Source: Bacteroidota bacterium (GTDB taxonomy: Bacteria; Bacteroidota; Bacteroidia; Bacteroidales; FEN-979). From it: a stretch of DNA of 64,000 nucleotides. Shown here piece after piece: positions 42,501-61,298 of the stretch. The stretch covers positions 188,101-252,100 of the forward strand of contig JAPLDF010000068.1 of assembly GCA_026391835.1 (NCBI GenBank), in the 5' to 3' direction. Numbering within the stretch: position 1 is the first letter of the stretch; every line of letters begins with the position of its first letter. A model generated the notes under the pieces. That model was not told the DNA's origin. It saw only the letters and a list, made by a program, of their open reading frames with translations, and made no database searches. The position numbers and the translations under genes are program-made.

Positions 42501-42730
42501 TGCATGGCCTGATTAACCTGTTTGTTCTTTCCCGCGATTGACTGCCCCGACTTCAATTGTTCCATGGTTTCAACAGAACTTAACATCAGCTTTAGTCCCA
42601 GGTATACAAGGTCGACATCAGCGACTGAAATGACAACATCGCCTGTTATGATGACCCCCTTGTTGAGCACCCGGTCGAGTAATTCAAGAATGGTAATTTC
42701 CTTTGACCGGTCAATTTCATTGTCGTACAT
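42497..42730 (-). CDS. GvpA-family minor protein (GvpJ/M/S-like)
   Basis: 77 aa. ITILELLDRVLNKGVIITGDVVISVADVDLVYLGLKLMLSSVETM is a GvpA-fold core. Confidence 0.8.
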   Translation of the reverse strand: MYDNEIDRSKEITILELLDRVLNKGVIITGDVVISVADVDLVYLGLKLMLSSVETMEQLKSGQSIAGKNKQVNQAMQ

Positions 42731-43808: not shown

Positions 43809-43826
43809 TTGTTTCCCAGTTTGTTA

Positions 43827-44063
43827 TTACCTGTTTTGTTTTTCTTCCCTGATTTGTTCCAGCAATTTCAACAATTCATCTTCCCGCCTGTCGTACTCCT
43901 CCTCGTCGATTTCGTCCATTTCAAACTTTAACTGCAAGCCCATCAGCCGTTCCTTGATGGCTCCTTCATCCGACATTTCCCGGTCGATCACCTCATTTAT
44001 CTTCTTCCCGATAAAAATTACGCCTTTCAGCGGTGCCAGAAGGATATCATCGATTAAAAACAT
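43827..44063 (-). CDS. gvpG: gas vesicle protein G
   Basis: MFLIDDILLAPLKGVIFIGKKINEVIDRE...EEYDRREDELLKLLEQI is the typical GvpG pattern. The start was chosen at ATG 44063. The ORF track starts at 44090. Confidence 0.8.
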   Translation of the reverse strand: MFLIDDILLAPLKGVIFIGKKINEVIDREMSDEGAIKERLMGLQLKFEMDEIDEEEYDRREDELLKLLEQIREEKQNR

Positions 44064-44064
44064 G

Positions 44065-44847: not shown

Positions 44848-44870
44848 AAAGACTGTTCAAAAAGTTTATT

Positions 44871-45644
44871 TTACAATTCCCATTTTTCGGGAAATATTTT
44901 CAGGTCGATAAAGTTAAAAATCGGGAGGGGGGCCGTATAAACAAAGTCGCACCGGTCCTGGTACCGGGCACCAATGGTGGCCATGATGTTGTCAAATTCG
45001 ACCTCCCTGCCGCTGTTTACAAGGAATGCAGTATTCATAAACACGGCATCGCTGCCTGTCTTGTTGTGTTTAAACTCGAATACGGATTTCCTGAAAGCAT
45101 CGGTTATTTTTTCAGTTTCTTCCTCTTTCATTGCTATAAGGGCACGTTCGACCAGTTTCCCGGCCTCATCGATCTTCAGGTTCCGCTCTTTCGAATCTGC
45201 CAGTTTATTTATTTCCGCCCTGAGTTTTTGAAGTTCCACATGCTCCCTGTCGATTTCGTTATAGATGATTCCCATATTTTTCCAGGTTCCCCGCACATTG
45301 AGTTCAACCTTGTTTTCAAACTGTCTCAGCAGCTCCATAAACTCGCTGTACCTGCGGTTGAGCAGGTTCCTGATTTCGTCGGGGGTTGCGGCGATGGTGC
45401 CGAACCTGATGGGAAGTATGCTCCTGAATTCCTTCATCACCTCTTCGATCACCTTCTGATGCGCCAGCATGTTTTCGGGATTGACAACAAACCGGCTCAG
45501 CGGGTGATCGCTGACGACCATACACAATCCGTCGAAACCTATGGTGGACACCAGGTCGCCGCGTCCGCCTACCCCGATCGGGCCCAGGTTGATGTCGTAA
45601 TCCGACGCAATGATGCAATAGATGTATTTTCCGTCGCGCTGCAT
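44871..45644 (-). CDS. GvpF/GvpL family gas vesicle protein (paralogue 2)
   Basis: GKYIYCIIAS...LCMVVSDHP...ILPIRFGT...APLPIFNFI. Confidence 0.85.
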   Translation of the reverse strand: MQRDGKYIYCIIASDYDINLGPIGVGGRGDLVSTIGFDGLCMVVSDHPLSRFVVNPENMLAHQKVIEEVMKEFRSILPIRFGTIAATPDEIRNLLNRRYSEFMELLRQFENKVELNVRGTWKNMGIIYNEIDREHVELQKLRAEINKLADSKERNLKIDEAGKLVERALIAMKEEETEKITDAFRKSVFEFKHNKTGSDAVFMNTAFLVNSGREVEFDNIMATIGARYQDRCDFVYTAPLPIFNFIDLKIFPEKWEL

Positions 45645-45645: not shown

Positions 45646-46686
45646 CTACTCCTTAATTTTTACTAAAATCAAATTCCCGGCCACGTCTTCCTTTGCCAGG
45701 GATATCAGGTCCTCTTTGACAGACTGCCTTACCGATGCCGAATAATCAAGCAGGGAGTGGTAGGCATCAATGATCATGTTAAAGTTTTCGACATCATCGG
45801 AATTGAGGTTGTTGTCGGGATGGAACAACTTTGCCCTTTCGAGGTATGCCTTTTTTATCTCCTGCTCGGTAATCCTTTCCTTTACGCCCAGGGCCCTCCT
45901 TGCCTGGTCAACCCTCCTGGCATTCAGTTCAATAACTTCAAGTGTAAAAAAACTGTAACAGGGTAGCGGGCCTACCAGCTTGAAATTCAACGTTCCCCGG
46001 TATTCTTCATCCAGCAGGTCAATGGCATGCTCGAACTTTTCCTTCTTGTTGCGGTTTATTAAAAATGCCGCATTGACCACCATCTCGTCGTTCATCACTT
46101 CATGCATTTTGATATCAAGTCCATATGGCGATAAGGCATCCAGTATTTTCAGTTCAACGTCTTTATTTTTCGCCTCAACAATATCCTTGATCAGCATCCC
46201 CACTTTCACCTGGTCTACTTTTGTGACGTTGCCGTTTTTTTGTAAAATTTCGGCCTTCATGGCACGGATGTCCGGAAGGGAAGAAATGGCTCCCAGTATC
46301 CCCGGGAAATCCGCCCAGGTTATGACCAGGTCGATTTCCGTCAGGTACTCGATTTTCTTCAGGGCATCAATGATCAGGTCATGGCCGCATGTAAGGACCT
46401 TCAGCACCTCATCTATTGAGTTTACGATCGTGCCAAGCCGCATGGGGAGGATCATGGTGAATCCTTTACCCTGCAACTCTTCTATGATCTCCTGGTGATG
46501 AACCAGCAGGTATCCCAGGGATTCCCGGTCGGAATAGTTGACCTGCGTTCCATCCCTGTCGGAAACAATCGCCGATATGTTTTGAAAAGTGATGGCGTAA
46601 ACCCCCGAATTTTCAAGTGATTGAAAGTGGGTTGTCCCGTAAAAATTCGGCACGATCCCATAGATGTAAATTCCTTTTGCAGCCAT
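45646..46686 (-). CDS. GvpF/GvpL family protein fused to a C-terminal DnaJ J-domain (paralogue 1)
   Basis: Residues 1-250 are GvpF/L-like (IYIYGIVPN...ISAIVSDRD...ILPMRLGT...GPLPCYSF). Residues about 258-314 read ALGVKERITEQEIKKAYLERAKLFHPDNNLNSDDVENFNMIIDAYHSLLD, with an HPD motif at 289-291. Confidence 0.85.
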   Translation of the reverse strand: MAAKGIYIYGIVPNFYGTTHFQSLENSGVYAITFQNISAIVSDRDGTQVNYSDRESLGYLLVHHQEIIEELQGKGFTMILPMRLGTIVNSIDEVLKVLTCGHDLIIDALKKIEYLTEIDLVITWADFPGILGAISSLPDIRAMKAEILQKNGNVTKVDQVKVGMLIKDIVEAKNKDVELKILDALSPYGLDIKMHEVMNDEMVVNAAFLINRNKKEKFEHAIDLLDEEYRGTLNFKLVGPLPCYSFFTLEVIELNARRVDQARRALGVKERITEQEIKKAYLERAKLFHPDNNLNSDDVENFNMIIDAYHSLLDYSASVRQSVKEDLISLAKEDVAGNLILVKIKE

Positions 46687-46736: not shown

Positions 46737-48896
46737 TCATTTCTTCACCGAATTTTGTTGAATTACAAGTTGTATCGCCTCTTCAAAATGTGCTTCCAGG
46801 ATGGAAATTTCTCCTGTAATTTCATCCTGGTTGTTGCGGTTTTTCTCTATAAGTTCCCTGATAGCGAGCATGGCCGCTTTCCGGCAGATGAATTCAATAT
46901 CCGAGCCGGTGAGCCCGTCGGTTTTAAGCGCCAGTTTTTTGATGCTGACCTTTTTCCCGAGGGGTTTGTTCCGGGTATGAATCGTGAATATTTTCTCCCT
47001 GGTGTTAACATCGGGCAGGGGCAATTCAAAAATCAGGTCGAACCGTCCGCTTCGCAGCAGGGCCGGGTCGATCAGGTCGATGCGGTTTGTTGCTGCGAGT
47101 ACAATGACTCCTTTCAGGTCTTCGATGCCGTCCATTTCGGTAAGAAACTGGCCAATGACCCTTTCGATGACCCCGGATCCTGAACTGTCGCTGCTGCGCC
47201 TGGGTGTAAGGCTGTCAATTTCATCAAGGAACAGGATGCACGGCGATGCCTGTTTTGCCATCCGGAAGAGTTCCCTGACACCTTTTTCCGACTCGCCGAT
47301 ATACCGGCTCAGGATTTGCGGCCCTTTTACTGAGATGAAATTGACACCGCTTTCGCTTGCCAGCGCTTTTGCCAGGTAGGTTTTGCCGGTTCCCGGCTTG
47401 CCGTGGAGGATGATCCCCTTGGGCGGTTTGGTATCGGCTTTTTTAAACAGTTCTGCATATTTCAGGGGCCATTCCACTGTTTCTTTCAATGCGTCCTTAA
47501 TTTCCTCAAGTCCGCCCACATCGTCCCATTTCACATCGGGAACCTCAACGAAAACCTCACGGATGGCCGAGGGTTCCACCTCCTTCATGGCATCCATGAA
47601 ATTGTCCATGGTCACCTCGAGCGACATTAAAAGTTCGTAGGGAATTTCGGCCATTTCGAAATCGATCTGCGGGAGTATTTTCCTGAGGGCGGTCATGGCG
47701 GCTTCCCGCGCCAATGCTTCAAGATCGGCGCCCACAAAGCCATGCGTGATCTCCGCCAGCTTTTCCATATCCACGTCCATCGACAGGGGAATTCCCCGCG
47801 TATGGATGTGCAGGATCTCAAGCCTTCCTTTTTTGTCGGGAATGGAGATGGAAATTTCCCGGTCGAACCGTCCCGGCCTTCTCAATGCAGGATCAATGGA
47901 ATTGGGAATGTTGGTCGCACCGATCACGATCACCTTACCCCTCGATTCCAGCCCATCCATGAGCGACAACAGCTGGGCTACCACACGTTTTTCAACCTGC
48001 TTTTCGCCGCCCATGTCCTCACGCTTGGGGGCAATGGCATCGATTTCGTCGATAAAAATGATGGAAGGAGCATGGGCCTGGGCTTCCTCAAAGAGTTTCC
48101 GGATACGCCCTTCGCTCTCACCGTAAAACTTCCCCATGATCTCGGGGCCGGAGATGTTTATAAAATAGGCATCCGTTTCATGGGCCACAGCCCTGACGAT
48201 GAGGGTTTTGCCGGTTCCCGGGGGGCCGTAGAGAAAAACCCCTTTGGGTGGCTGGACCCCGAGCCGCTCGAAGATTTCGGGATATTTCAGCGGAAGTTCG
48301 ATCATCTCCCTGATCCGCTGAACCTGGTTTCCAAGACCACCGATATCTTCGTACGAAACCTTGCTTTTGCGCTCTCCCTCCTGTTTTGCCAGTTCGAGCT
48401 GGAAAACTGTGTTCGGGTGTATCAGGACCACTCCTTCAGGGTTGACACCTGTTACGGTATAATCCACCGAACGGGAGCCAAACAGGTTGGCCCTCACCTT
48501 GTCGCCTTTTATCACCGGCAAGCCGTTGAACAGCGAACCAATGTATTTACCGTCGTCGCTTTTAAACAGCGAACCGGACTTGGTGTCGGGTTTGAGTTTT
48601 ATTTTTGCAGCCTGGCGGAAGGAGGTCTTCACGACCTTCACTTTTTCATCGATCCCGGCCTGGGCATTTTCCCTGGTAATGCCGTCAATCTGAATCAGGT
48701 TCTTGTCCCTGTCTTCGGGATAGCAGGGCATGATCTTGACCGGGGTGGCCCGTTTGCCTTCGATCACCACCAGGTCGCCACTTTCGAGGCCGAGCAGTTT
48801 CATGTCTTTCGGATCCATCCGGGCAATCGCCCTTCCCACATCTTTCACCAGGGCTTCTTTTACCCGCAGTACTATTTCTTCCTTGATTTTGGCCAT
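46737..48896 (-). CDS. Cdc48/VCP-like double-ring AAA+ ATPase
   Basis: 719 aa. Cdc48-N-like domain ([38 protein letters not shown]). D1 Walker A GPPGTGKT with Walker [10 protein letters not shown]2 Walker A GKPGTGKT with Walker B ILFLDEID. Confidence 0.9.
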
Positions 48897-49862: not shown

Positions 49863-50411
49863 TTATTTTTTTATCCTGATCTCAAGAATGCCGTTTGTAA
49901 ATTTATGCCTCAGGTTTTTCCGGTCGGCTTTTTCAGGAAGCAGCAGTTCCTTGCGGTACGACCTGCTTTTGCTTACTGCCGAAATTTCAAGGATGTCTTC
50001 CTTCAGATCGATGTGGATATCGCTTTCCTCTATTCCGGGCATTTCTGCAATGATCACCAGTTCATTCTTTTCATTGAAGACATCGGTGATGGGCTCCCGC
50101 TCTTCATCCACCTTTGGTCCCTCCGGTGTTTTTTTGATATTCCCGAAGGTTTCAACCCTGGGAGAGCCTCCGCCGGCCGTATTGATGGTAAACCCATAAA
50201 CGCCTTTCATGCCTTTTTTGATGTGATCAAAGTTGATCTCCCCCTCCTTTTTTATACCACCACTTTCATCGAGTTTCCCTGCAAGGTCAACAAGTTTCTC
50301 AATGCCTTTGAAAAGGCCACCAAGTCCGAAAAGATCAAAATCGGCTTCATCTTTTTTTTCTTTTTTCTTGTCGTTTTCCATTTTATACCAGGTTTTAACG
50401 GTTCTTAACAA
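49863..50411 (-). CDS. Hsp20/alpha-crystallin family small heat-shock protein (GvpH-like position)
   Basis: ITDVFNEKNELVIIAEMPGIEESDIHIDLKEDILEISA...KFTNGILEIRIKK is an alpha-crystallin domain. The N-terminus is Lys/Glu-rich. Confidence 0.85.
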   Translation of the reverse strand: MLRTVKTWYKMENDKKKEKKDEADFDLFGLGGLFKGIEKLVDLAGKLDESGGIKKEGEINFDHIKKGMKGVYGFTINTAGGGSPRVETFGNIKKTPEGPKVDEEREPITDVFNEKNELVIIAEMPGIEESDIHIDLKEDILEISAVSKSRSYRKELLLPEKADRKNLRHKFTNGILEIRIKK

Positions 50412-50463
50412 TATTCCTTCACCGGTCCGTCCATCTGAAGGGAAGGAATCCGGTACAGGGTTA

Positions 50464-50760
50464 TCATGGTTTATTCATTGCCTCCAGTTTCTCCAGCCGC
50501 GACTCCAGCGCATCCTGTTGCTGCATCAGTTCTTTTTCCCTGGCTTTGGTTGAAAGATAGGTGTCTTCCTGCCACCAGTTTATGCCCATCTCCATCGCCT
50601 TGTCAACCGACGCCACCAGCAACCTGATCTTGATGGTCAGCAGGTCAATATCCGCAATCTGAATTTTAATATCGCCGGCAATCACGATGCCTTTGTCGAG
50701 GACTCTTTCGAGGATATCGGCCAGGCCGGTCGCCTGGATCGAATGGGTAGGTTCTGACAT
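50464..50760 (-). CDS. gvpJ: gas vesicle protein J-like (GvpA family)
   Basis: LADILERVLDKGIVIAGDIKIQIADIDLLTIKIRLLVASVDKAMEMGINWW. Confidence 0.85.
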   Translation of the reverse strand: MSEPTHSIQATGLADILERVLDKGIVIAGDIKIQIADIDLLTIKIRLLVASVDKAMEMGINWWQEDTYLSTKAREKELMQQQDALESRLEKLEAMNKP

Positions 50761-50772
50761 AACAAATTGTTT

Positions 50773-51087
50773 TTAATAATCTATTGACATGGTTTTCCAC
50801 TCCTTTTTATCATCTTTCTTTGATTTCCTGCTCTTTTCCGAGGGCCCAGGTGTATGCATTTCCCCTGCTTTTTCATCATAATATGCCTGGATCTCCTTAA
50901 GTCTGTCCTGGATGATCTCAAGCCTTTGCAAAATCCTGATCTCTTCGCTCTTCAGCCGGGTTCTCTCCTTTTCGAACATATACAGTTTAATAAAATCCGA
51001 ATCCTCCTTGTTTGGAATACCCGATTTAACTACATTCTGCATGCTTTTGATGCTCTGAAGTCCTTTTATTGCGGTGGATATTGGCAT
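50773..51087 (-). CDS. coiled-coil gas-vesicle accessory protein (possibly GvpV-like)
   Basis: 104 aa. LYMFEKERTRLKSEEIRILQRLEIIQDRLKEIQ resembles the pattern I recall for cyanobacterial GvpV. This is weak, memory-based evidence. Confidence 0.35.
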   Translation of the reverse strand: MPISTAIKGLQSIKSMQNVVKSGIPNKEDSDFIKLYMFEKERTRLKSEEIRILQRLEIIQDRLKEIQAYYDEKAGEMHTPGPSEKSRKSKKDDKKEWKTMSIDY

Positions 51088-51092
51088 ATGGC

Positions 51093-51140
51093 TTGGATTT
51101 GAAGATTTGAAAATTTGACAATTTGAAGATTTGAAAATCT
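51093..51140. repeat. octamer tandem repeat (GAARATTT-like) x6 filling the spacer downstream of gvpN
   Basis: ttggattt gaagattt gaaaattt gacaattt gaagattt gaaaatct. Confidence 0.9.
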
Positions 51141-51152
51141 TAAAATAATTCT

Positions 51153-52070
51153 TCAGGAATATTGTTCAATAAGTTCATTCACAATGATTTTTACCTTTTC
51201 CTGGTTGGTTTTTGATCCAATCCGGCTGGTTTCGGACGTGAGGATGTCCTGGCATATTTTCCGGAACATATCCTTTGATTTTGACGGCGTTGTTTTTAAT
51301 GTCGCCAGGGTTTTTGCAATCATGATGGAACCACGGATGGTCGGATCGAATTCAGTTTTCCCCGATTCGCGCAACCCTCTCACAATCTTCACGATGATTT
51401 CGGTATCCTTCAATGAAAGCAGAGATTTTGCCCGGGTGATCTGCAATTCCGTTTCATAGTCAAAATGATCCAGATCCATGGTCACCATGCGGTCGCGCAA
51501 GGCATCCTGGGTACGGTTCACCCCTGCGTACTCCTCGGGATTTGAGGTAAAGATGGCACGGAATTCGGGATGCACCTTCATGTAGTAATCCTCCTCCTTT
51601 GCCGCCGAAGTGCTCAGCATTCTCTCCTGCAGGATGGGAAGCAGGATGTTGTTGGCTTCGGGACGTGAACGCGTGAACTCGTCATATATCAGTGTAAACC
51701 CGTTTTTTACGGCAATGGTCAAACGGTTGTTCACCCACTGCTTGGTCATGTCCTCTTCATACTTATGCACCGAATGAATAAACTTGTCATCCAGCTTTTT
51801 GTACTTATATCCCTGTTCACTGCCAATGAGATCGGACGTTTTATACTCGGCATCGCCATGGATGATCACCACCGGGCGGCCTATTTTACTGGCCAGGTGC
51901 ATGGCTACGGTCGTTTTCCCGGTACCCGACGGCCCCCTGAAATGAACAGGGAATCCGGCTTTGATATAGGTCAGACCACGGTTGGTGATATCCCTGATAT
52001 AGTCTGTTTCTACAAAATTTGACATCGGCTTCAGTTCGAGCACGGTATTCATTTCATTGTTGTCGCTCAT
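51153..52070 (-). CDS. gvpN: gas vesicle protein N (AAA+ ATPase)
   Basis: FVETDYIRDITNRGLTYIKAGFPVHFRGPSGTGKTTVAMHLA, Walker B LIYDEFTR and a size of 305 aa. Confidence 0.92.
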   Translation of the reverse strand: MSDNNEMNTVLELKPMSNFVETDYIRDITNRGLTYIKAGFPVHFRGPSGTGKTTVAMHLASKIGRPVVIIHGDAEYKTSDLIGSEQGYKYKKLDDKFIHSVHKYEEDMTKQWVNNRLTIAVKNGFTLIYDEFTRSRPEANNILLPILQERMLSTSAAKEEDYYMKVHPEFRAIFTSNPEEYAGVNRTQDALRDRMVTMDLDHFDYETELQITRAKSLLSLKDTEIIVKIVRGLRESGKTEFDPTIRGSIMIAKTLATLKTTPSKSKDMFRKICQDILTSETSRIGSKTNQEKVKIIVNELIEQYS

Positions 52071-52083
52071 GGATAGAGGTTGT

Positions 52084-52121
52084 GAAGATTTACGATTTAC
52101 GATTTTTGATTTACGATTTTT
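52084..52121. repeat. short tandem repeat (ACGATTT-like) upstream of gvpN
   Basis: gaagattt acgattt acgattttt gattt acgattttt. Confidence 0.8.
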
Positions 52122-52154
52122 GCATTTTATACTTTCCCTTTTGCTTTTTGATTT

Positions 52155-52337
52155 TTATCCAAAGGGTTTGTTTGGGATTTGTTTCAGCGACTCCTCCCAC
52201 ATGGCTCCGGCCTCTTCAATTTCCCTGAGGATGAGTTCTCTTTTAAGTAAAAACTCCCTCTTCCCGGCCTGGAACCGTTCCATTGCTTCCTGTCGTTTTT
52301 TCAGGCTGTTCCTGATACCACTTGCCGCATCCTTCAT
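52155..52337 (-). CDS. small helical hypothetical protein (60 aa)
   Basis: Same strand as the cluster and tightly bounded by repeat spacers. It has a charged amphipathic sequence, RQEAMERFQAGKREFLLKRELILREIEE. No family is recognised. Confidence 0.35.
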   Translation of the reverse strand: MKDAASGIRNSLKKRQEAMERFQAGKREFLLKRELILREIEEAGAMWEESLKQIPNKPFG

Positions 52338-52340
52338 TTT

Positions 52341-52372
52341 CCAATTTTCAAATTTTCAAATCTTCAAATTTC
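52341..52372. repeat. octamer tandem repeat (CAAATYTT) x4, inverse orientation of the 51093-51140 array
   Basis: ccaatttt caaatttt caaatctt caaatttc. Positions 52348-52369 are the exact reverse complement of 51097-51118. Confidence 0.9.
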
Positions 52373-52682
52373 AACAGACACCCCGGCCTTTACATTGGGT
52401 ACAAGGCAGGCCATCGCCCGATTTACCGCTTCCGTTGCATTGCCGGCATTTTTTATTGTTTTCGACATGGTTGTTTCCCTTTCCGCCGCATACGATACAC
52501 GGCACCCTTGCACCCAACGGATTTTTACCGGAACCGTCACAAAACACACACTTTTTCATGGGTTCATCAACCCCAACGCTCCCGGTGCCATTGCAAACGA
52601 GGCATTTTGAGATCGGAGAAAGCAGGTCAAAAGGATCCTTTCCCGTGGCGCTGCAAAACGGACAATTGAATGTTTTTATCAT
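52371..52682 (-). CDS. stand-alone DnaJ-type (CR) zinc-finger protein, six CxxCxGxG repeats
   Basis: 103 aa with CPFCSATG, CLVCNGTG, CVFCDGSG, CIVCGGKG, CRQCNGSG and CTQCKGRG. Confidence 0.7.
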   Translation of the reverse strand: MIKTFNCPFCSATGKDPFDLLSPISKCLVCNGTGSVGVDEPMKKCVFCDGSGKNPLGARVPCIVCGGKGNNHVENNKKCRQCNGSGKSGDGLPCTQCKGRGVC

Positions 52683-52699
52683 GGGTTGAGAATAGGTAC

Positions 52700-52965
52700 G
52701 GTTCGAGATAGTTGGTGGCTTCGGCTTCGCTCAGCCACCGGATGTGCTCAGCCACCATAAGCGCTAAGCCACCGGATGACTTCGACCTTGCTCAGTACCC
52801 GGGTACCCACCCGGACGCTTCAACCTAGTTCGTGCCAGGAGCCCCACCCCGGACACTTCAATCCTACGCGTACCCCGGGTACCCACCCCGGATACTGAGC
52901 GTAGCCGAAGTGTCTGCGGGTTGGGTTAACTGAGCGAAGCCGGTTTCCCGACCCCACCCAGTACC
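52700..52965. repeat. degenerate GC-rich direct or inverted repeat spacer inside the gvp locus
   Basis: Recurrent motifs are gctcagccaccgg, gctaagccaccgg, (g)tacccgggtacccacc(c)cgga and cttc(g/a)a(c/t)c. No credible ORF is present. Confidence 0.6.
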
Positions 52966-52972
52966 CCAAACG

Positions 52973-54193
52973 CTATTTTATCGGATAATAAATATTATCA
53001 ATTTTCTGAACTTTTCCTCCATCGAGCAACGTTTTTGCAGTATACCCGAGCTTCATCCTTGTTTCGCCGAGGGGTTCTTCCATTTCCGAGATCTTAACCC
53101 CCTTGGGATGCTTGTTGATATAATCCAGGACTTTCTGATCCAGTGTTCTGGTATCTGAAAGAACCGCCTTAACTGCTGCAACGGGAGTTTCTTTAACAAC
53201 TTCCGCGGAAGCCTCCTTTTTCACCTCTTTCTTTTCGGTTTTCTTTACGGTCTGCTTCGGTGCGGGGGCAACGCCTGTTTTCCTTACGTGGGCCATTGTT
53301 TCCTGCATTTTATTCCATTCTGCCGAGGCATCAACCCTGTTTTGCAGCAAATCATCCAGCATCCCGGCAGTGGCTTTTTGAACATCCCTGACCTCTTTCT
53401 GAATTCCCTTGATTGAAACATGAATTCCCTTCATGATCGCATTGTAATCGGTGATCCTGTCTGTTTCGCCTTTGGAGAGATCTTTTCTCAGTTTTTGGGC
53501 CATTTTCTGATTTTCCCTCCCGATTTCCGACAGCCTCTTCTGGAAGCCATGCAGCAGTGCCCTGGTATAATCGACTCTTTCACCAAGGTTTTTGCCCAAT
53601 TCCGCTTTCAGTTCTTCCGACATCTCCTTGTGTTCCTTTTCAAACCGGTCGAGCATGTTGTTCGTGTTCAGGAAGATCGTTGAAACCTCATCGTTGATGA
53701 TTTTAATATCGTCGCCGATATTCGACATGAGTGCATCAAACTCCGCCATCCTGTTCTTTTCCTCCTGCATCCTGTCGGCCCGGCCCTGTGCAAAGGTTTT
53801 ATCCAGGTCGTCGGCCATGTGTGCCCGGTCTTTTGTGAATTCGCTGATCATTTTGAAGGTGGAAGTTTGAATGGCCACCACTTCATGCTGAATGGAGGCG
53901 ATTGTTCCATGGATCCCCGACATCAACCCGTTAAAATTGTGCAGCCGTTCTTTCTCCCCGCGCGCAAGACCTTTCCTCAGGGCAGCGGCATTTGCATTCA
54001 ATGCTACAGCCAATTCCATATGATCCTTGCGGAAACCGTCGAGGGTTACCTGGACGTCATTAACAAGTTCTTCATTTTCCCTGATGCGTTGCTTGAACGA
54101 AGCAAGTAACTCTTCTGTCAACACCTTCATGTCTGATGCTAGTCCCATTTGTTTATCTCCTATTTTAAATGAATTTAATGTTTCCTGGGTCAA
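52973..54193 (-). CDS. helical-repeat protein with Lys/Ala/Val linker and C-terminal winged-helix-like domain (GvpC-position protein, long paralogue)
   Basis: 406 aa. Internal repeats are LRKGLARGEKERLHNFNGLMSGIHGTIASIQHEVVAIQ, RADRMQEEKNRMAEFDALMSNIGDDIKIINDEVSTI and LRKDLSKGETDRITDYNAIMKGIHVSIKGIQKEVRDVQ. The tail is LDYINKHPKGVKISEMEEPLGETRMKLGYTAKTLLDGGKVQKI. Confidence 0.7.
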   Translation of the reverse strand: MTQETLNSFKIGDKQMGLASDMKVLTEELLASFKQRIRENEELVNDVQVTLDGFRKDHMELAVALNANAAALRKGLARGEKERLHNFNGLMSGIHGTIASIQHEVVAIQTSTFKMISEFTKDRAHMADDLDKTFAQGRADRMQEEKNRMAEFDALMSNIGDDIKIINDEVSTIFLNTNNMLDRFEKEHKEMSEELKAELGKNLGERVDYTRALLHGFQKRLSEIGRENQKMAQKLRKDLSKGETDRITDYNAIMKGIHVSIKGIQKEVRDVQKATAGMLDDLLQNRVDASAEWNKMQETMAHVRKTGVAPAPKQTVKKTEKKEVKKEASAEVVKETPVAAVKAVLSDTRTLDQKVLDYINKHPKGVKISEMEEPLGETRMKLGYTAKTLLDGGKVQKIDNIYYPIK

Positions 54194-54798
54194 CTGATTT
54201 CCTTAATGATTTGATTTTTAACAATTTTTATGTCTTCAATCCGGATATGATCGCCTTTTTCAAGCAGTCCTTCCAGGCACTCCATCATCCTGTTGTGCAT
54301 GTGCTGAAATTCCAGGAACGTCTTCATCACCGTTTCCTTTCTCGACTCCTGCAATTTTGAAACCTGTGAAAGCTGGTCCTTGATGATGTTAATCTTTTCG
54401 GTAGCATCCTGGGATGCAATATCTTTAATGCCCAGCAGGCTCGCTTTCAGCGATTGGGCAGTCTCTTTCTGCGCTTCAATGAATGAGAGGAACAAACTTT
54501 CGGCGGCCCGTTCTTTTTCATCGAGTGCACAAAGAATGCCTGACATCATTGCGTTGTAATCTTTTTTCCGAAGGGAACCCTTTTTGGCGAGGGTTTCGCA
54601 CAACCTCGAATTCATGATATCCCGCTCCTTTTTCAGATCGTGCAGTGAGTTATGCACATTATCGAACAGGGAGTGGGACGATTCAGTAATGTATTCGGAC
54701 GACTGGAAAGCAGTTTGTATTTTCTGGATGCGGTTTTCGTATGAGGTTATGATGTTGTTGAAAAAACCATCGATGTTTAATTCGGGCAGGGGACTCAT
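54190..54798 (-). CDS. helical-repeat protein, short paralogue of 52973..54193
   Basis: It shares the repeat LRKKDYNAMMSGILCALDEKE. It has a 4-nt overlap with the next gene. The likely start is ATG 54798 (MSPLPEL). The ORF track uses TTG 54804. Confidence 0.65.
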   Translation of the reverse strand: MSPLPELNIDGFFNNIITSYENRIQKIQTAFQSSEYITESSHSLFDNVHNSLHDLKKERDIMNSRLCETLAKKGSLRKKDYNAMMSGILCALDEKERAAESLFLSFIEAQKETAQSLKASLLGIKDIASQDATEKINIIKDQLSQVSKLQESRKETVMKTFLEFQHMHNRMMECLEGLLEKGDHIRIEDIKIVKNQIIKEIS

Positions 54799-54957
54799 AT
54801 TCAATTATTAATTTATTTACAAACAGGGTGTTGGGTTATGGGATGGTTGTGCTGGCTATTCAGGGGCTGAAAAAGAAATTCTTGGTAATCCATGCTTTCA
54901 TGTATTAAACAGGGAAGGATGTCTTAGCAAGAATAGCTGTTAAACTGCAGGACTGCC

Positions 54958-55161
54958 TTATGCGGCTTTTGCAGTCAATCCGATTGCTTCAGCATACTTC
55001 AGGTATGTCTCAACAGAGGCAACAACGATTCTTGCTTCAATTGCAAGCAGTTCGATACCTACCAATGAAACTCTTACCCATGCATCAACTACGACACCTT
55101 TGTCAAGGATACGGTCGATAACTTCTACCAGGCTGGATGATCCGATCGTCTTTTCTACCAT
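54958..55161 (-). CDS. gvpA: major gas vesicle structural protein GvpA
   Basis: 67 aa. [55 protein letters not shown] is near-canonical GvpA. AGGAG lies 9 nt upstream of the ATG. Confidence 0.95.
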
Positions 55162-55283
55162 TTTTTTAATCTCCTATATTGAATGAATGAACACCGTGCT
55201 TGACATTCGAGGGACGGTTTACCTCTTGTGCCGGAAGCATAAACAAAGGGCGGGCCGGAAATGGCAGGCAATACAGGAGCAGT

Positions 55284-55313
55284 CATATTCAGACGGCTAA
55301 TTCCCTGAATATG
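55284..55313. promoter_or_regulatory. perfect 9-bp inverted repeat (catattcag N12 ctgaatatg) in the gvpA upstream region
   Basis: Read directly. It lies about 125-150 bp upstream of the gvpA ATG, in the divergent intergenic region. It could be an operator or enhancer site. Function is unproven. Confidence 0.3.
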
Positions 55314-55487
55314 AAACGCAAAAAAAAATCATTTTTTTTCAGGAGGAAATTCACCGGTGATGAATGATCGCAGGATTACCGGCAAACGGCAAATTAATCG
55401 CGTAGCCTACGCGAAAACGCGTGGGGCTGCCTGGCTTATATCTCCCTATCTTTGCATCATTATTTAAAAGATTTAGAGAGTCGAAAT

Positions 55488-56129
55488 ATGAAGAGATTAT
55501 TATATATCCCGATGCTCCACAATCAAACTGATTTAGGATCACTTGGCGGCAGATTATCCATTGAGGGAGGGAAAAAATATGGAATTTCCAACTGGCAGGA
55601 GCACGTTGAGCAGGTTGATAAATCGTGGCATAGGATAGATGCTGAAATTTCCAGGCTTATCAGGCGCATATCACCCGGCAAGATCAAAATTTACCAGGAC
55701 GGGTTACCGGCGGTTGATGAAGTTGGAAGAAAAATCGTGCAGGAAGCCGCTAAAAGCGGCAGCATAAATTACAGGATCATCGATGACCTGATGGTACGGG
55801 GAGCAAAACTGGAAATCGCTGAAAACAAAGAATTGTTGCTCAGGGAGTATTTTCTTCTGACTGATATAGCGAAGGCTGAAACCCCTGAAGATGCGTTAAA
55901 AGCCTACCAGGATTACCAAAAAGTGGCGCAGGAACTGCTGAATGACCGGGATACCCATATCGCAAACCAGATCAATGCGACACTTGCCAACGGGGAAACC
56001 GGGATTGCATTTTTTGGTGCGGCCCATGCCATCACAGGCAAATTAAACAAAGACATAAAAGTAACTGTCATTCAAATGTTTACCGACGACATTTCTCGGT
56101 TTTTACTTAACAACCCGGGTCAAGCGTAG
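55488..56129 (+). CDS. TraB/GumN/Tiki-superfamily-like protein (hypothetical)
   Basis: N-terminal YIPMLHNQTDLG, with C-terminal NDRDTHIANQINATL...GIAFFGAAHA. This resembles the GxxH ... RDxxM ... G.aH pattern of TraB-family proteins. The start was chosen at ATG 55488. Confidence 0.45.
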   Translation: MKRLLYIPMLHNQTDLGSLGGRLSIEGGKKYGISNWQEHVEQVDKSWHRIDAEISRLIRRISPGKIKIYQDGLPAVDEVGRKIVQEAAKSGSINYRIIDDLMVRGAKLEIAENKELLLREYFLLTDIAKAETPEDALKAYQDYQKVAQELLNDRDTHIANQINATLANGETGIAFFGAAHAITGKLNKDIKVTVIQMFTDDISRFLLNNPGQA

Positions 56130-57498
56130 CGATAGCATACTTTTTAATCTTCCTGCTTAGGGCATCACGGTGTATTCCAAGGGCATTGGCGGCGGCCTGC
56201 TGGTTGTAGTTGGCTTTTTTGAGCGCCTTTTGTATCAGTCGGACCTCGTTGTTTTTCAGGTTCACTGAATCGACTTCATCCGCCGGTGGCGTTTTTATTT
56301 TTGGTGCTACAGGGAAATCATTGGCCCCAAGCGTGTTTCCCTTGCACAAAATGATGGCTCTTTCAGCCAGGTTTTTCAGTTCCCTCACATTTCCCGGGAA
56401 ATCATATTTCATAAGGAGATCAAAAACTTCAGTTGAAACGCGCAGGCTTGGTTTATTGAATTTCGTGGCAAAAACATCGACAAAATGGGTCAGCAGGGGT
56501 TTGATGTCTTCGGGTCTTTCCCTGAGCGCCGGGATATGTATATGCAGCGTATTGAGCCTGTGCAGCAGGTCGAGCCTGAATTTCTTCTTCTCCACCCTTT
56601 TGTTGATGTCATGGTTTGTGGCCGAAATAATACGGAAGTTGGTACGGATCTGGGCTGTATCCCCAACCCTGGTAACCACCTTTTCTTCGGAAGCACGCAG
56701 AATTTTCGCCTGCAGGTTCAAAGGCATGTCAGCGATCTCATCAAGAAAAAGGGTCCCGCCGTTACACAACTCGAAAAAGCCCATTTTATCGGTGATGGCC
56801 CCGGTAAAAGAGCCTTTTTTGTGTCCGAAAAACTCGCTCTCCAACAGCGTTTCCGTAATTGCGCTGCTGTTAACAGCCCCAAAAATATGGTCCTTCCTGA
56901 TGCCTGAATAGTGTATGATCCTGGCAATGTTCTCCTTTCCCGTACCACTCTCCCCGGTGATCAGAACATTGGCGTCGGGATAATTTGCCGCGGCCAGCGC
57001 CTGGTCAAATACTTCCAAAATCTTCGGGCTGACGCCGATAAACTGCCGGTCGATTTTTTCTTCAAGGGATTTTGAGATCAATGAATTTTTCTCTTCCATC
57101 TGCTTCAGCCTTCGCTGCATCTGAAGATATTTCTGGGTGCGCTCAATGGCAATCTGGATGTCGAGGAACCTGAAGGGTTTGCGCAGGTAATCGAACGCAC
57201 CGAGCCGCATGGCTTTGATCACGGTATCCATATCGCCGTGCGCCGAAATGATGATGACTTCCATGAAGGGGTAATCATTTTTCACCTCCTTCAGGATATC
57301 CAGGCCATTTACGCCTGGAAGCCTGACGTCGAGGATGAGGAGGTCGATTGCGTGGCTGGTCAGGATCTTCTTTCCTTCGGCTGCAGTGTTGGCCTCGAAG
57401 GAATCAAAGTTCGAATCCACAAAAAAACCACTCAACTCTTCTGTAAACTGTTTCTCATCATCAAGGATCAGGATCTTTATCTTGTCTTTTCCTTCCAT
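56107..57498 (-). CDS. sigma-54-dependent response regulator (NtrC/Fis family enhancer-binding protein)
   Basis: REC domain (LLILDVRLPGVNG). AAA+ domain with GESGTGKE, the GAFTGA-like loop GSFTGA and ESEFFGH. C-terminal Fis-type HTH NYNQQAAANALGIHRDALSRKIKKY. Confidence 0.92.
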   Translation of the reverse strand: MEGKDKIKILILDDEKQFTEELSGFFVDSNFDSFEANTAAEGKKILTSHAIDLLILDVRLPGVNGLDILKEVKNDYPFMEVIIISAHGDMDTVIKAMRLGAFDYLRKPFRFLDIQIAIERTQKYLQMQRRLKQMEEKNSLISKSLEEKIDRQFIGVSPKILEVFDQALAAANYPDANVLITGESGTGKENIARIIHYSGIRKDHIFGAVNSSAITETLLESEFFGHKKGSFTGAITDKMGFFELCNGGTLFLDEIADMPLNLQAKILRASEEKVVTRVGDTAQIRTNFRIISATNHDINKRVEKKKFRLDLLHRLNTLHIHIPALRERPEDIKPLLTHFVDVFATKFNKPSLRVSTEVFDLLMKYDFPGNVRELKNLAERAIILCKGNTLGANDFPVAPKIKTPPADEVDSVNLKNNEVRLIQKALKKANYNQQAAANALGIHRDALSRKIKKYAIATLDPGC

Positions 57499-57506
57499 AT
57501 TATCTT

Positions 57507-60500
57507 TTACTTTTGAATGTTCAGTACAATTTTAACCGTTGTTCCCTGCATCATGTTGCTCGCAATGTCAATGGTTCCGTCCATTGCCTTTATAATCTGA
57601 TAGCAAATGGATAATCCGAGGCCGGTTCCCTTTCCCTCGTCCTTGGTCGTATAAAAAGGGAGCAGGATATGGTTGATATCATCATTGCTGATGCCTATGC
57701 CATTGTCTGACACTTCAACGATCAGCGACAGATTTTCCTGGTATGACCTGATACCGACAATCAATTCGGTAAATCCATCCTGGTGGCTTTTTTTGTCGAT
57801 CACCGCATCTTTGGCATTTACCAGCAGGTTTATGATAACCTGTTCAAATTCATAGGTATTTCCAAATATCTGGGGAAGCTGTTTTTCAAGGTCAAGGTTG
57901 AGGCTTATTCCAAGGTGTTTGAACTGTTCAGCGATCATTGAAACACCATTTTCGATGCTTGCGTTGATATCGAAAGCCGTCAGCACATAATCATCATGGC
58001 TTCTCGAAAATGCCCTGACATGATCAATGATGTTCCTGATCCTGGTGATATTTTCAAAGATCTTTTCCGATTTGGCTGTCAGGAACCCGACGTCGACCGA
58101 TGCGGTTTTTGCCGTCTCGAACAGGATTTTATCCATCACCATTGAGATGATATTAAGCGGCTGGTTGATCTCATGGGCAATACCCGAAGCCATCTCGCCA
58201 AGGTTGGCCATCCGGTCGGCATGCATCTGTTTTGTCTCGGTTTTTTTGCGCTGCGATATATCACGGACAATGATCATAAACGACAAGGGGTTGCCCCCAG
58301 GGTCCTGGATCAACGTTGTGCTGATTTCGGCGGGGAACAGGGACTGGTTTCTTTTTCTGATCTTCAGCTCAATATTCTGAGCCAGCCCTTCGTTCATAGT
58401 CTTTTCATACAAATCACGGAGGGCATCCCGTTCTTCGGAAGGTACGAAGAGCATGGCACTTTTCCCGACCAGGTCATTGCGGGAGATGGCGCCGAACAAT
58501 TCAAGACCGATTTCGGATGCTTCGGTAATGATGCCATTGAGGTCGATCAGTAAAATTCCATCCGGCGAAGCGTTTAGCATTGTTTTGTATTTTTCTTCGC
58601 TGACTTTTCTCGCCTGTTCGGCCAGTTTGAGGTCGGTGATGTCCTCGGAGATGCCCAGCAGGTATTCCGGTTCACCGTTGGCGTTAAACATGGGCACTTT
58701 CTGGGTATGCAGGATCCGAAGCCCTTTGTTCCTGGTCTGTATCGGCTCTTCGGGGATGTCGATCATGACCCTGTTGCGTATCACTTCGCGGTCCTTTTCC
58801 ACAAAGCTGTCGGCCTGTTCTTTAGAAAAGAAATCATAATCACTTTTACCGACAAGATCTTCCATGGTGTAGCCCAGCAGGTTCTCCCCGGCCCGGTTGA
58901 TACGGACAAAACGGAAGTCCACTGCGTCCTTGATAAATATCATATCCGGAATATTGTCAATGACCGAATCCAGGAAATTGTTCACCCGGCGTATCTCCTC
59001 ATCGGCCAGCTTGCGCCGGGTAATGTCACGTATGATCCCGGTGAAAAACTTGCCCGAAGCTGTCTCCCACGCCGCCAGGGAAATTTCTATCGGGAACTCA
59101 TTGCCGTTTTTATGCAACCCGAAGAGTTCCACTGTTTTTCCAATAAAATGGCTGTCTCCTCCCCTGATGATCCGTTCGATATATTCAGTGTGCTCCCGGG
59201 CATATTGCTGCGGCATGATTGTCTTGAGATTTTTTCCGACAATTTCGTCATGAGTATAGCCGAATACTCTTTCTGCACCTTTGTTCCAGCCAATGATGAT
59301 CCCGCCGCTGTTGGCTGAGATGATCGCATCGTTCGCCGACTGCGTCACAGCACGGAACCGCTCTTCGCTTTCACGAAGCATCTCCTCCGCCTGTTTCCGA
59401 TTGGTGATGTCATGAACAACGGTATACCGGAACTTTTTATCCTGGATTTGGATAATTTCAGCCGAAAGCAGGACATGTTTGATCTCGCCGTTCTTCGCCC
59501 TTAGGGTTGCTTCGAGATTCGATTCATTCTGCCTGACTGCTATCGCTTTCATGAGCCCTTTTAAACTTTCATCGGTTAAAATACCCAGTTCCAGAGCCGT
59601 TTTGCCAATCACTTCATCCTTGTCAAATCCCAGCAGGTTATAAAATGCTTCATTCACTTCGATGTATTCGCCGGTAACATAATCGCTCAATCCGCAAGCG
59701 GATGGATTGAGATAGAACACTTTGGAGAATTTCTCCTCCGACAGTTTAATCTGGGTAATGTCTTTACTGACCCCGAAAATTACCGGTTTCCCATCCCAAT
59801 AGCCCTTCGACACCTTTGTTTCAACGGCGATGTGAATTCCGGATTTGGTCATAATAGGAATGGGGCAGAATGCGGTTACTCCAAGCAACATCTCATCGAT
59901 GATTCTTGCGGCCTCAATACGGAGTTCAGGCGGATGAACCATGAGCATTGAATTTCCGAAAAGTTCTTCGTGCTCGTAACCGAGCCGGTCAGTAACGGTT
60001 TTATTGGCGTGAACAATGTTCCCCTGAACATCGATCACAAAGAGGAAATCGTCAATGGCATTAAAAAAAGTCTCAAAGTTTTGCTGTGTTTGCTGCAGTA
60101 ATCTTTCGGTCTGTATACGACGTGTGATATCAATTACGTTTAACAGGCATTGCTGTTCGTTTGCAAAAACGATTCCTTCGATATGGACATTTGCCGGCTG
60201 CCCCCCCCCGGCTTCTATGATTATTTCACATATTTGCTTGGTTTTCGTTTTCAAAACAGCTTGAAAAAAAGCATTGAAAGAATGACGTGTTTTCTTTGAA
60301 ACAAAGTCATCGAAATGAAGGTTCATCAAGCGTGAACGCTCACTTCCAAGCATGCGTGCACCGCTGTGGTTGAGCTCCTCGATTGCTTTTTCCTTCGACA
60401 GTGTAAAATATGCCGACGGGGCGAAATCGTATAGTTCCGTATATTTCTGGGAAGCGATCTCTATTTTGATATTTGCCTGGAGAAGTTCTTCATTCTGCAT

Positions 60501-61298
60501 TTCAAGTTCAACCTGGTGCGTTCGCAGGTTTTCTTCCATCTCCTTCCGCTGAGAGATGTCCTTGGCAAAACCGAGAAACCGTGTTTCAGAAAGTTTAACT
60601 GCTTCCAAAACCATCCAGCGCGTTTTACCGTGTTTATCCCTGAACATCAAATCGGCCTGTGATGATCCGGTGCTGACCAATTTTCTGAGATGAGCCATAC
60701 CATCTTCGCGTGATTCTTCAGGAAGGAAATCTGAAAAAGACATTTCAAGCAATTGCTCCTTCGAATACCCGGTCATGCGGCATGCAGCAGGGTTTACCTC
60801 AATATATTTTCCTGTCTCATCAATGATAAAAACACCGTCGGGAGCATGGTCAATATAGTCCTTGTATTTTTGTTCGCTTATTGCAAGGGAAGTATTTAAT
60901 TTAATCAACTCCCGCCGGTTAACGGCCTCCCTGAGTTCGCGTTCTACAACCGGGATGAAGCGCGACATTTTTCCCTTGAGCAGGTAATCGTGCACGCCTG
61001 ATTTGATCAGTTCAACTGCCTTTTCCTCTCCGATCATCCCCGAAATAACAATAAACGGAATGTCGGTGCCATGGGCATGATAAATTTCGAGTGCCGATTG
61101 GACACTGAAACGGGGCATGGAATAATCGGAAAGAATGATGTCCCAGCTGGTTTGTTCCAGCGCGGCCTGCATCTCCTCACCCGTCTCGATCCGCCGGTAG
61201 GTTACATTGTACCCTCCCGTCCTGAGCATCCGTATGTTGATCTCGGCATCAGCCTCGCTATCCTCGATAACCAGTACATTCAGGTTCTTTCCAGACAT
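57507..61298 (-). CDS. hybrid sensor: N-terminal receiver, about seven PAS domains, HisKA and HATPase
   Basis: 1263 aa. REC domain (DIILSDYSMPRFS), an internal HQVELEMQNEEL...YTELYDFAPSAYFTL cassette, H-box IAHEINQPLN and G-boxes DNGIGI and GTGLGL. Confidence 0.9.
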   Translation of the reverse strand: MSGKNLNVLVIEDSEADAEINIRMLRTGGYNVTYRRIETGEEMQAALEQTSWDIILSDYSMPRFSVQSALEIYHAHGTDIPFIVISGMIGEEKAVELIKSGVHDYLLKGKMSRFIPVVERELREAVNRRELIKLNTSLAISEQKYKDYIDHAPDGVFIIDETGKYIEVNPAACRMTGYSKEQLLEMSFSDFLPEESREDGMAHLRKLVSTGSSQADLMFRDKHGKTRWMVLEAVKLSETRFLGFAKDISQRKEMEENLRTHQVELEMQNEELLQANIKIEIASQKYTELYDFAPSAYFTLSKEKAIEELNHSGARMLGSERSRLMNLHFDDFVSKKTRHSFNAFFQAVLKTKTKQICEIIIEAGGGQPANVHIEGIVFANEQQCLLNVIDITRRIQTERLLQQTQQNFETFFNAIDDFLFVIDVQGNIVHANKTVTDRLGYEHEELFGNSMLMVHPPELRIEAARIIDEMLLGVTAFCPIPIMTKSGIHIAVETKVSKGYWDGKPVIFGVSKDITQIKLSEEKFSKVFYLNPSACGLSDYVTGEYIEVNEAFYNLLGFDKDEVIGKTALELGILTDESLKGLMKAIAVRQNESNLEATLRAKNGEIKHVLLSAEIIQIQDKKFRYTVVHDITNRKQAEEMLRESEERFRAVTQSANDAIISANSGGIIIGWNKGAERVFGYTHDEIVGKNLKTIMPQQYAREHTEYIERIIRGGDSHFIGKTVELFGLHKNGNEFPIEISLAAWETASGKFFTGIIRDITRRKLADEEIRRVNNFLDSVIDNIPDMIFIKDAVDFRFVRINRAGENLLGYTMEDLVGKSDYDFFSKEQADSFVEKDREVIRNRVMIDIPEEPIQTRNKGLRILHTQKVPMFNANGEPEYLLGISEDITDLKLAEQARKVSEEKYKTMLNASPDGILLIDLNGIITEASEIGLELFGAISRNDLVGKSAMLFVPSEERDALRDLYEKTMNEGLAQNIELKIRKRNQSLFPAEISTTLIQDPGGNPLSFMIIVRDISQRKKTETKQMHADRMANLGEMASGIAHEINQPLNIISMVMDKILFETAKTASVDVGFLTAKSEKIFENITRIRNIIDHVRAFSRSHDDYVLTAFDINASIENGVSMIAEQFKHLGISLNLDLEKQLPQIFGNTYEFEQVIINLLVNAKDAVIDKKSHQDGFTELIVGIRSYQENLSLIVEVSDNGIGISNDDINHILLPFYTTKDEGKGTGLGLSICYQIIKAMDGTIDIASNMMQGTTVKIVLNIQK

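Follow-up and report, generated by a model that had tools for sequence, protein, structure and literature searches.

The gas-vesicle cluster of the window

The stretch of DNA described here, called the window, consists of 64,000 nucleotides (nt) from contig JAPLDF010000068.1 of a Bacteroidota bacterium. It contains a complete gas-vesicle (gvp) gene cluster, which lies on the minus strand and runs from 55161 down to 41380. This text is about one small gene in that cluster. It encodes a zinc-finger protein of 103 amino acids (aa) that is almost nothing but six CxxCxGxG knuckles, and which may be part of a chaperone pathway for gas-vesicle assembly.

Starting at the shell protein, the gene order is GvpA, a 204-aa protein, a 406-aa protein, the zinc-finger protein, a 60-aa open reading frame (ORF), GvpN, a 104-aa ORF, GvpJ, Hsp20, a GET3/ArsA-family ATPase and a CDC48-family AAA+ ATPase. 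After this come a GvpF/L protein fused to a J-domain (GvpF/L-J), two GvpF proteins, GvpG, a GvpO-like protein, GvpF, a 77-aa GvpA-family protein, GvpF and finally GvpK. Given the Hsp20, the CDC48-type AAA+ and the GET3-type ATPases, the cluster is rich in proteostasis genes. All coordinates are in Table 1.

GvpA is extremely hydrophobic, and it is not yet understood how it stays soluble and enters the growing vesicle. Work is under way to engineer gas vesicles into acoustic reporters, and heterologous expression is reported to cause proteotoxic stress (PMC12848028).

The zinc-finger protein

The translation of the ORF is MIKTFNCPFCSATGKDPFDLLSPISKCLVCNGTGSVGVDEPMKKCVFCDGSGKNPLGARVPCIVCGGKGNNHVENNKKCRQCNGSGKSGDGLPCTQCKGRGVC. 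Its CxxC pairs are C7/10, C27/30, C45/48, C62/65, C79/82 and C94/97. Five of the six knuckles are strict CxxCxGxG. The first reads CPFCSATG, with an alanine at a position that is glycine in 98% of orthologues. The protein is small, basic (isoelectric point, pI, 8.8), rich in glycine and cysteine, and cytoplasmic. A preliminary description of the window had announced a six-knuckle protein of this size here, and had suggested looking for the Pfam model DnaJ_CXXCXGXG (PF00684). That model does match, at 34.0 bits against a gathering score of 32.7, which is a marginal pass. More distant gvp-linked relatives score 44-48 bits.

PF00684 is the sole Pfam domain above threshold. No other Pfam domain was found, J-domain included, and DUF5351 stays below its threshold. 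None of the named Gvp families of Pfam and NCBIfam matches the protein, it has no similarity to GvpA or GvpC, and neither database holds a dedicated model for its family. Current annotation calls the members “hypothetical” or “DnaJ-class chaperone”.

Conservation was measured on 85 orthologous coding sequences, of which 84 come from fetched loci and one is the window's own. The twelve knuckle cysteines are 100% conserved, and the median pairwise ratio of non-synonymous to synonymous substitution rates (dN/dS) is 0.14. All six motifs are strict in 62 of the 85, and lengths cluster at 103-105 aa. A terminal 13th cysteine of the window protein, C103, is not conserved. Twelve invariant cysteines and a dN/dS of 0.14 go far beyond chance, and argue strongly for a protein that is translated and held under purifying selection. 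That the ORF encodes a real, gvp-specific zinc-knuckle protein is near-certain.

Spread of the family and linkage to gvp genes

A word-indexed search found 72 homologues of around 100 aa at 53-75% identity, and those with a name come from Bacteroidota metagenome-assembled genomes. A profile search of 1.84 billion representative proteins (clusters at 50% identity) yielded 722 matches at E<1e-3, of which 249 reach E<1e-10. The majority span the whole six-knuckle domain, so the profile is not simply catching ordinary DnaJ proteins. The named sources include Bacteroidota, Latescibacterota, Candidatus Scalindua, Dehalococcoidia and Zixibacteria, and few of the distant members have a name at all.

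Two sets of loci were collected around such relatives. The close set comes from a scan of one genome per species, with 123 relatives and 80 loci kept. The distant set comes from a metagenome scan with twelve distant members, which are 36-47% identical to the window protein. This gave 540 relatives, and again 80 loci were kept.

The preliminary description had stated beforehand that a lack of conservation next to gvp genes in related genomes would count against its proposal. This objection clearly does not hold. Core gvp genes stand beside the zinc finger in 77 of 77 close (Bacteroidota-type) loci of at least 3 kb and in 50 of 50 distant ones, or 127 of 127 together. Bacteroidota-type loci hardly ever depart from the order 406-aa protein, zinc finger, 60-aa ORF, GvpN, and GvpN is the commonest downstream neighbour of the zinc finger. 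Overall, the zinc finger occurs in two different gene-order contexts within gvp clusters. Outside the Bacteroidota, a second paralogue lies further downstream in many clusters, and some have 3-6 copies. The zinc-finger protein is a conserved and apparently undescribed component of gvp clusters in several bacterial phyla.

This second paralogue is more divergent and longer (about 125-135 aa), also has six knuckles, and sits between a 104-aa-like ORF and GvpO/GvpJ (for example L001:6591-6995 and L106:12198-12575). It is found in many clusters from outside the Bacteroidota, including many of the loci L086-L165, and in a few from within. The window does not have it.

Distant family members were also checked for domain fusions. 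This gave weak winged helix-turn-helix/MarR hints and no Gvp domain. Two candidates were dropped. The N-terminal stretch of P0089 resembles the start of GvpA by eye, with no Pfam support, and PF27659 in precomputed lists is a faint CHP02642 match only.

Gas-vesicle clusters have been surveyed before. The earlier survey noted ArsA and Hsp20 genes in them, but not the zinc finger, GvpF/L-J or a DnaK within the cluster (PMC2963123). Nothing was found in the literature searched that links gas vesicles with DnaJ-type zinc fingers, CXXCXGXG motifs, J-domains, Hsp70 or DnaK in the cluster. Three things appear to be new. One is a family of six-knuckle, three-module proteins that is restricted to gvp clusters but spans several phyla. 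The others are that this family is almost always paired with a GvpF/L-J fusion, and that DnaK paralogues are present in gvp clusters.

The J-domain fusion and Hsp70

The GvpF/L-J gene lies 5.7 kb downstream of the zinc finger on the same strand, as the preliminary description had it (about 6 kb). Its product scores 159 bits for GvpL_GvpF, and 42.3 bits for the DnaJ domain PF00226 against a threshold of 27.8. The AlphaFold model has a predicted local distance difference test (pLDDT) score of 87 and a GvpF fold (Foldseek E of about 5e-15 to 6L5D and 4QSG). The C-terminal part has helices at residues 256-266, 274-288 and 296-322 according to DSSP, with the HPD motif between the last two. H289, P290 and D291 are invariant in alignment A4. 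This part superposes on the J-domain of T. thermophilus DnaJ (4J7Z) with a root-mean-square deviation (rmsd) of 1.1 Å over 48 residues, and on that of Ydj1 with 1.7 Å over 56 residues. By PF00226 score, placement of the HPD and modelled fold, GvpF/L-J carries a genuine J-domain.

The two signature modules of a type I Hsp40 are thus both present, on separate proteins, as had been claimed. This extends beyond the window. The 70 loci counted as informative have the zinc finger together with two or more complete GvpF-family ORFs. A J-domain on a GvpF-family protein is seen in 69 of these 70, across phyla, although the loci were sampled for having the zinc finger, and related clusters are not independent of one another. 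Every J-domain that was detected sits on a GvpF-family ORF. The HPD is present in 46 of 46 Bacteroidota-type loci that reach that far, and in 17 of 17 J-domain matches of the distant set.

Ten clusters of informative loci with the J fusion also encode an Hsp70 of the DnaK equivalog type. Hsp70 genes occur in seven distant clusters (L102, L103, L113, L125, L132, L090 and L086). Five of these, all from metagenomes (L102, L103, L113, L125 and L132), share the order GvpN, Hsp20, Hsp70, GvpF/L-J, GvpF, two to four zinc fingers, GvpG. A cultured bacterium, Flavobacterium sp. LS1P28 (L166; GCA_003970335.1), has the same cluster as the window, including a 105-aa zinc finger with six strict motifs. Its 601-aa Hsp70 comes directly after GvpK (L166:15318-17123) and passes the NCBIfam DnaK equivalog cut-offs (947 against 648, and 923 against 823). 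Hsp70, a J-domain protein and zinc-knuckle proteins of the DnaJ cysteine-rich (CR) type stand side by side in gvp clusters again and again. This is the main support for the idea of a split DnaJ.

Thirteen PLSDB plasmids with GvpF/L genes served as a control. Twelve of these (from Streptomyces, Rhodococcus, Nostoc, Methylosinus and others) have the GvpF domain only, with no J fusion, and none of the thirteen has a homologue of the zinc finger. The thirteenth is pOA238_160 (L172) of Octadecabacter arcticus 238, a cultured gas-vacuolate alphaproteobacterium. It encodes a GvpL/F with a J-domain and HPD at 14947-16029.

A cysteine-rich ORF near gvpA of Octadecabacter turned out to be a tandem-repeat artefact, and not a zinc finger. 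On the same plasmid, the annotated coding sequence at 9651-10085 (minus) has a repeat translation of the LAAGDAGVGLLV type. The call is probably spurious and made on a tandem repeat.

Architecture of the knuckles

The AlphaFold (AF2) model of the zinc-finger protein is confident, with a pLDDT of 91.4. It has strands at residues 2-6 and 35-39, 42-44 and 70-72, and 78 and 102. Isolated beta-bridges (residues 15/26, 53/61 and 87/93) stand on either side of the loops that link knuckles 1 and 2, 3 and 4, and 5 and 6. In 260 six-knuckle family members, the odd knuckles are CxFCxGTG followed by a loop, and the even ones CxVCxGKG-xVxVxEP. Family proteins with more than six knuckles have even numbers only (8, 10, 12 or 16).

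The modelled structure and the family pattern of odd and even knuckles point to a repeat unit of two knuckles. With such a unit the Zn(Cys)4 modules would be three in sequence, of the kind known from Anti-TRAP, and not the nested hairpin of DnaJ. Most likely, then, the fold is one of three beads, each with a predicted Zn(Cys)4 site built from two consecutive knuckles, and with short beta-hairpins joining the beads. The cysteines would pair sequentially, as 1+2, 3+4 and 5+6. Zinc binding is predicted, at three Zn per monomer.

Some loops are also conserved. DPFxxLS after knuckle 1 is kept across phyla, NPLGAR after knuckle 3 is kept in Bacteroidota, and LPC precedes knuckle 6 in the family. These are candidate contacts for a partner or client.

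Comparison with known systems

The CR region of DnaJ (PF00684; 1EXK, 2CTT) shares with this protein the CxxCxGxG knuckle, the Pfam model and a probable link to Hsp70 and a J-domain. It has four knuckles however, where the zinc-finger protein has six. It also sits inside the client-binding domain of a J-protein, whereas the zinc finger is free-standing and the J-domain is on GvpF/L-J. In the DnaJ CR, knuckles pair 1+4 and 2+3 in a V-shaped hairpin, and this differs from the three sequential modules predicted here. The DPFxxLS and NPLGAR loops are specific to the zinc-finger family.

Plastids contain DnaJ-like zinc-finger proteins that lack a J-domain. BSD2, OR, PSA2, LQY1 and ZnJ6 are assembly chaperones, and each of these DNAJE-type proteins serves one difficult client or complex (PMC4806229, PMC12063368, PMC7865324). 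The stand-alone CxxCxGxG region without a J-domain is what they have in common with the zinc finger. They are eukaryotic, and their four motifs form the C-terminal end of a larger protein (PMC4806229), unlike the bacterial six-knuckle protein, which is also operon-linked to its presumed clients. The BSD2 structure gives insignificant matches only to the zinc-finger model, and the BSD2 Pfam model matches one relative faintly.

Anti-TRAP (RtpA of Bacillus; PF15777; 2BX9, 3LCZ, 3LD0) is likewise small and free-standing, and builds one zinc site from two consecutive CxxCxGxG knuckles. It superposes locally with an rmsd of 0.9-1.7 Å over 27-35 residues. Anti-TRAP is a single module where three are predicted here, and the zinc finger scores below both family cut-offs (26.0 bits against 32 for PF15777, and 26.1 against 65 for NF058604). 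Anti-TRAP binds TRAP and in this way controls tryptophan genes, and gvp clusters show nothing comparable.

A J-protein specific to its client, with an Hsp70 dedicated to it, is a known arrangement, for example HscB and HscA. GvpF/L-J resembles such class C (type III) J-proteins in that a client-specific domain is fused to an HPD-bearing J-domain, and in some gvp clusters an Hsp70 is encoded beside it. The differences are the targeting domain, which is GvpF/L, the separate zinc-knuckle protein, and the Hsp70 itself, which scores as a DnaK equivalog and not as HscA.

Proposed mechanism and its rivals

The best-supported proposal is that the zinc-finger protein is a zinc-dependent holdase or co-chaperone in gas-vesicle assembly. 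Its clients would be non-native Gvp proteins prone to aggregation, either of the GvpA/J/M family or among the accessory proteins, and it would act in the same pathway as GvpF/L-J. The GvpF domain of the latter would bind the client or the assembly site, while its J-domain would activate an Hsp70. This Hsp70 would be the housekeeping DnaK in the window organism, and a cluster-encoded DnaK paralogue in some relatives. In this way the zinc finger may supply in trans what the cysteine-rich region of a type I Hsp40 does in cis. The Hsp20, CDC48-type AAA+ and GET3-type ATPase fit with such a chaperone-rich assembly line. Client binding and cooperation with Hsp70 are what we infer, and the probability of this trans-acting, CR-like holdase in a GvpF/L-J-Hsp70 pathway is put at about one half.

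Several observations weigh against it. Among solved structures the best match to the zinc-finger protein is indeed a DnaJ CR (1EXK), but the similarity is weak (E=0.003), and the model has no significant global fold match to the DnaJ CR. No Hsp70 gene was found in the window, including the space after gvpK. In most clusters the zinc finger adjoins gvpN and not the J-domain gene. On pOA238_160 no zinc finger was found within 15 kb of the J fusion, even at a hidden Markov model (HMM) threshold of E<=1. Conversely, locus L159 has the zinc finger with no J-domain and no Hsp70. Lake metatranscriptome contigs (four sets) gave none over the zinc-finger ORF, even at 80% likeness, where it should be said that such contigs show presence and not absence. 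The sampling behind the co-occurrence counts also belongs on this list. The Octadecabacter and L159 cases mean that zinc finger and J fusion are strongly associated, not obligatorily coupled. The split DnaJ originally suggested is thus supported in part, by the two modules on separate proteins, their co-occurrence and the DnaK within some clusters. The architecture does not look CR-like, and the modules can occur apart.

That the zinc finger adjoins gvpN in most clusters, immediately upstream and in Bacteroidota with only the 60-aa ORF in between, keeps another explanation alive. The protein could work with the AAA+ ATPase GvpN, as its partner, adaptor or regulator, recruiting substrates to it or controlling its oligomerisation, independently of Hsp70. 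It is the most serious of the alternatives, yet still an unlikely one. In the five metagenome clusters with the shared order the zinc fingers are four genes away from gvpN, beside GvpF/L-J and GvpF, and the second paralogue, present in many clusters, does not adjoin gvpN. Somewhat less credible is a structural or nucleating component at the vesicle surface or cone tip, a minor protein associated with the shell. The gene is strictly gvp-cluster-encoded, it lies between gvpA-proximal helical proteins and assembly genes, and its paralogues expand up to six copies per cluster. Against this, the protein is small, basic and Gly/Cys-rich and does not resemble GvpA or GvpC, and the zinc finger co-varies with chaperone genes and not with shell genes.

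Two further explanations are both very improbable. By analogy with LQY1, PSA2 and ZnJ6, the protein might act on Gvp proteins as a thiol-disulfide oxidoreductase, or as a redox or zinc switch. Disulfide isomerase or oxidase activity is possible for CR-type zinc fingers (PMC4806229, PMC7865324), and the GET3-like ATPase of the cluster has a CxxC. But GvpA, GvpJ, the GvpM-like protein, GvpK, Hsp20 and the 406-aa protein are all without cysteine, and the cytoplasm is a reducing compartment. Disulfide chemistry on clients of the GvpA family, which the preliminary description had brought up, is excluded by their lack of cysteine. The other explanation is a protein-binding inhibitor in the manner of Anti-TRAP, for example one that titrates the sigma-54 activator or another gvp regulator. 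The sub-threshold Anti-TRAP matches and the local superposition of one two-knuckle module speak for this, the shortfall from both cut-offs against it. The gene also has assembly genes around it, occurs in multiple copies within clusters, and is found where no sigma-54 regulator is nearby.

The trans-acting holdase can be taken one step further. The targeting co-chaperone GvpF/L-J, between one and six zinc holdases and, in certain lineages, a DnaK of the cluster's own might be the separate parts of an Hsp70 system dedicated to the organelle, which would deliver insoluble GvpA to the growing vesicle. This wider version is tentative, and rather more likely wrong than right. If true, a bacterial protein organelle would for the first time be seen to have Hsp70/Hsp40 machinery of its own, and the zinc-finger protein would count as a new and essential family of Gvp proteins.

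With a conserved chaperone kit in the cluster, gas-vesicle assembly would have a concrete pathway that can be tested. The kit would consist of the zinc-knuckle protein, the J-domain GvpF/L and sometimes DnaK, plus Hsp20 and the CDC48-type and GET3-type ATPases. Its genes would be candidate helpers for expressing difficult gvp clusters. The homologues of the zinc finger also define a large unnamed protein family, and with Flavobacterium sp. LS1P28 a cultured carrier is available for genetics.

Other features of the locus

Table 1. Features of the gvp cluster and its surroundings, in window coordinates.
Feature	Position	Strand	Basis
Hybrid PAS histidine kinase, upstream of gvpA	57507-61298	minus	ORF
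Sigma-54 response regulator, upstream of gvpA	56107-57498	minus	ORF
225-aa protein between gvpA and sigma-54 regulator	55452-56129	plus	weak TraB/PrgY/GumN match only
GvpA, major gas-vesicle shell protein, 67 aa, no Cys	54958..55161	minus	PF00741 59 bits
Conserved 204-aa protein between gvpA and 406-aa gene; no family	54190..54804	minus	Pfam, synteny
Conserved 406-aa helical protein upstream of zinc finger; no family	52973..54193	minus	sub-threshold Pfam matches only
GC-rich spacer, 290 nt	52683-52972		
Six-knuckle zinc-finger protein, 103 aa	52371..52682	minus	ORF, ATG start; PF00684; AF2 model
8-nt tandem repeat, four units	52336-52367		
Small conserved 60-aa ORF between zinc finger and GvpN	52155..52337	minus	tblastn; no Pfam/NCBIfam match
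GvpN (AAA+)	51153..52070	minus	TIGR02640 344 bits vs 267
Conserved coiled-coil-like 104-aa ORF	50773..51087	minus	weak family matches only
GvpJ-like GvpA-family protein, 98 aa, no Cys	50464..50760	minus	PF00741 62 bits
Hsp20/alpha-crystallin-type small heat-shock protein	49863..50411	minus	PF00011 33 bits vs 20.8
GET3/TRC40/ArsA-family ATPase, 314 aa	48914..49858	minus	PF02374 251 bits; TIGR00345 244 vs 135
CDC48-family double-ring AAA+ ATPase	46737..48896	minus	TIGR01243 923 bits vs 803; Pfam
GvpF/L-J: GvpF/L protein with C-terminal J-domain, 346 aa	45646..46686	minus	PF06386 + PF00226
J-domain helices I-III, residues ~255-322 of GvpF/L-J	45721..45924	minus	DSSP
HPD motif, residues 289-291 of GvpF/L-J	codons 45814-45822	minus	alignment A4
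GvpF	44871-45644	minus	Pfam
GvpF	44065-44847	minus	Pfam
GvpG	43827-44090	minus	Pfam
GvpO-like protein	43521-43808	minus	Pfam
GvpF	42730-43524	minus	Pfam
GvpA-family protein, 77 aa	42497-42730	minus	Pfam
GvpF	41742-42500	minus	Pfam
GvpK	41380-41727	minus	Pfam
PAS histidine kinases and CheB-CheR fusion	30146-41326	minus	

Conservation of the genes around the zinc finger differs between the two sets of loci. The 406-aa gene is present in 82 of 85 Bacteroidota-type loci and in 43 of 80 distant ones. The 60-aa ORF has a tblastn match at the same position in 79 of the 85, and was not detected in distant clusters. The 104-aa ORF is present in 71 of the 85. From 41380 to 45644 the gene order is the same as in Flavobacterium sp. 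LS1P28.

The ArsA-like gene encodes a single-domain ATPase of the GET3/TRC40 family. Its CxxC is at residues 260/263, which we take to recall the motif of the zinc-bridged Get3 dimer.

The spacer between the 406-aa and zinc-finger genes is packed with direct and inverted repeats. As sense-strand RNA it folds at -140.7 kcal/mol (z = -4.9). Rfam has no match in the locus, this spacer included, and the element is absent from orthologous loci, where G+C is 24-49% and most spacers measure 40-200 nt (extremes of 8 and about 1300). It has the look of an insertion or structured element particular to this lineage. On the other side of the zinc-finger gene, the gap between its stop codon and the start of the 60-aa ORF is filled by the tandem repeat, with ATTTTCAA-like units.

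Near-identical contigs from lake-water metatranscriptomes (the four sets mentioned above) were found for window positions 50400-55400. These cover gvpA, gvpJ, the 104-aa ORF and part of the 406-aa gene, which indicates that the gvp locus is expressed in situ. Several variant positions in the gvpA contigs point to co-occurring strains. Pieces at 52335-52371 are low-complexity matches.

Upstream of gvpA, the sigma-54 response regulator and the hybrid PAS kinase (56107..61298) likely regulate the cluster. Homologous Response_reg/Sigma54_activat/HTH_8 genes are at the same place in L001, L004, L166 and L170. A by-eye search for a sigma-54 promoter upstream of gvpA gave no convincing GG-N10-GC match.

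The 225-aa protein on the opposite strand is 38% identical to a 230-aa protein that follows the Hsp70 within the cluster of Flavobacterium sp. LS1P28, and relatives occur in further gvp clusters (L117, L126, L147 and L162). This is another unnamed gvp-associated family. At the other end, directly downstream of gvpK, the PAS histidine kinases and the CheB-CheR fusion make up an unusually dense sensory block beside a buoyancy locus.

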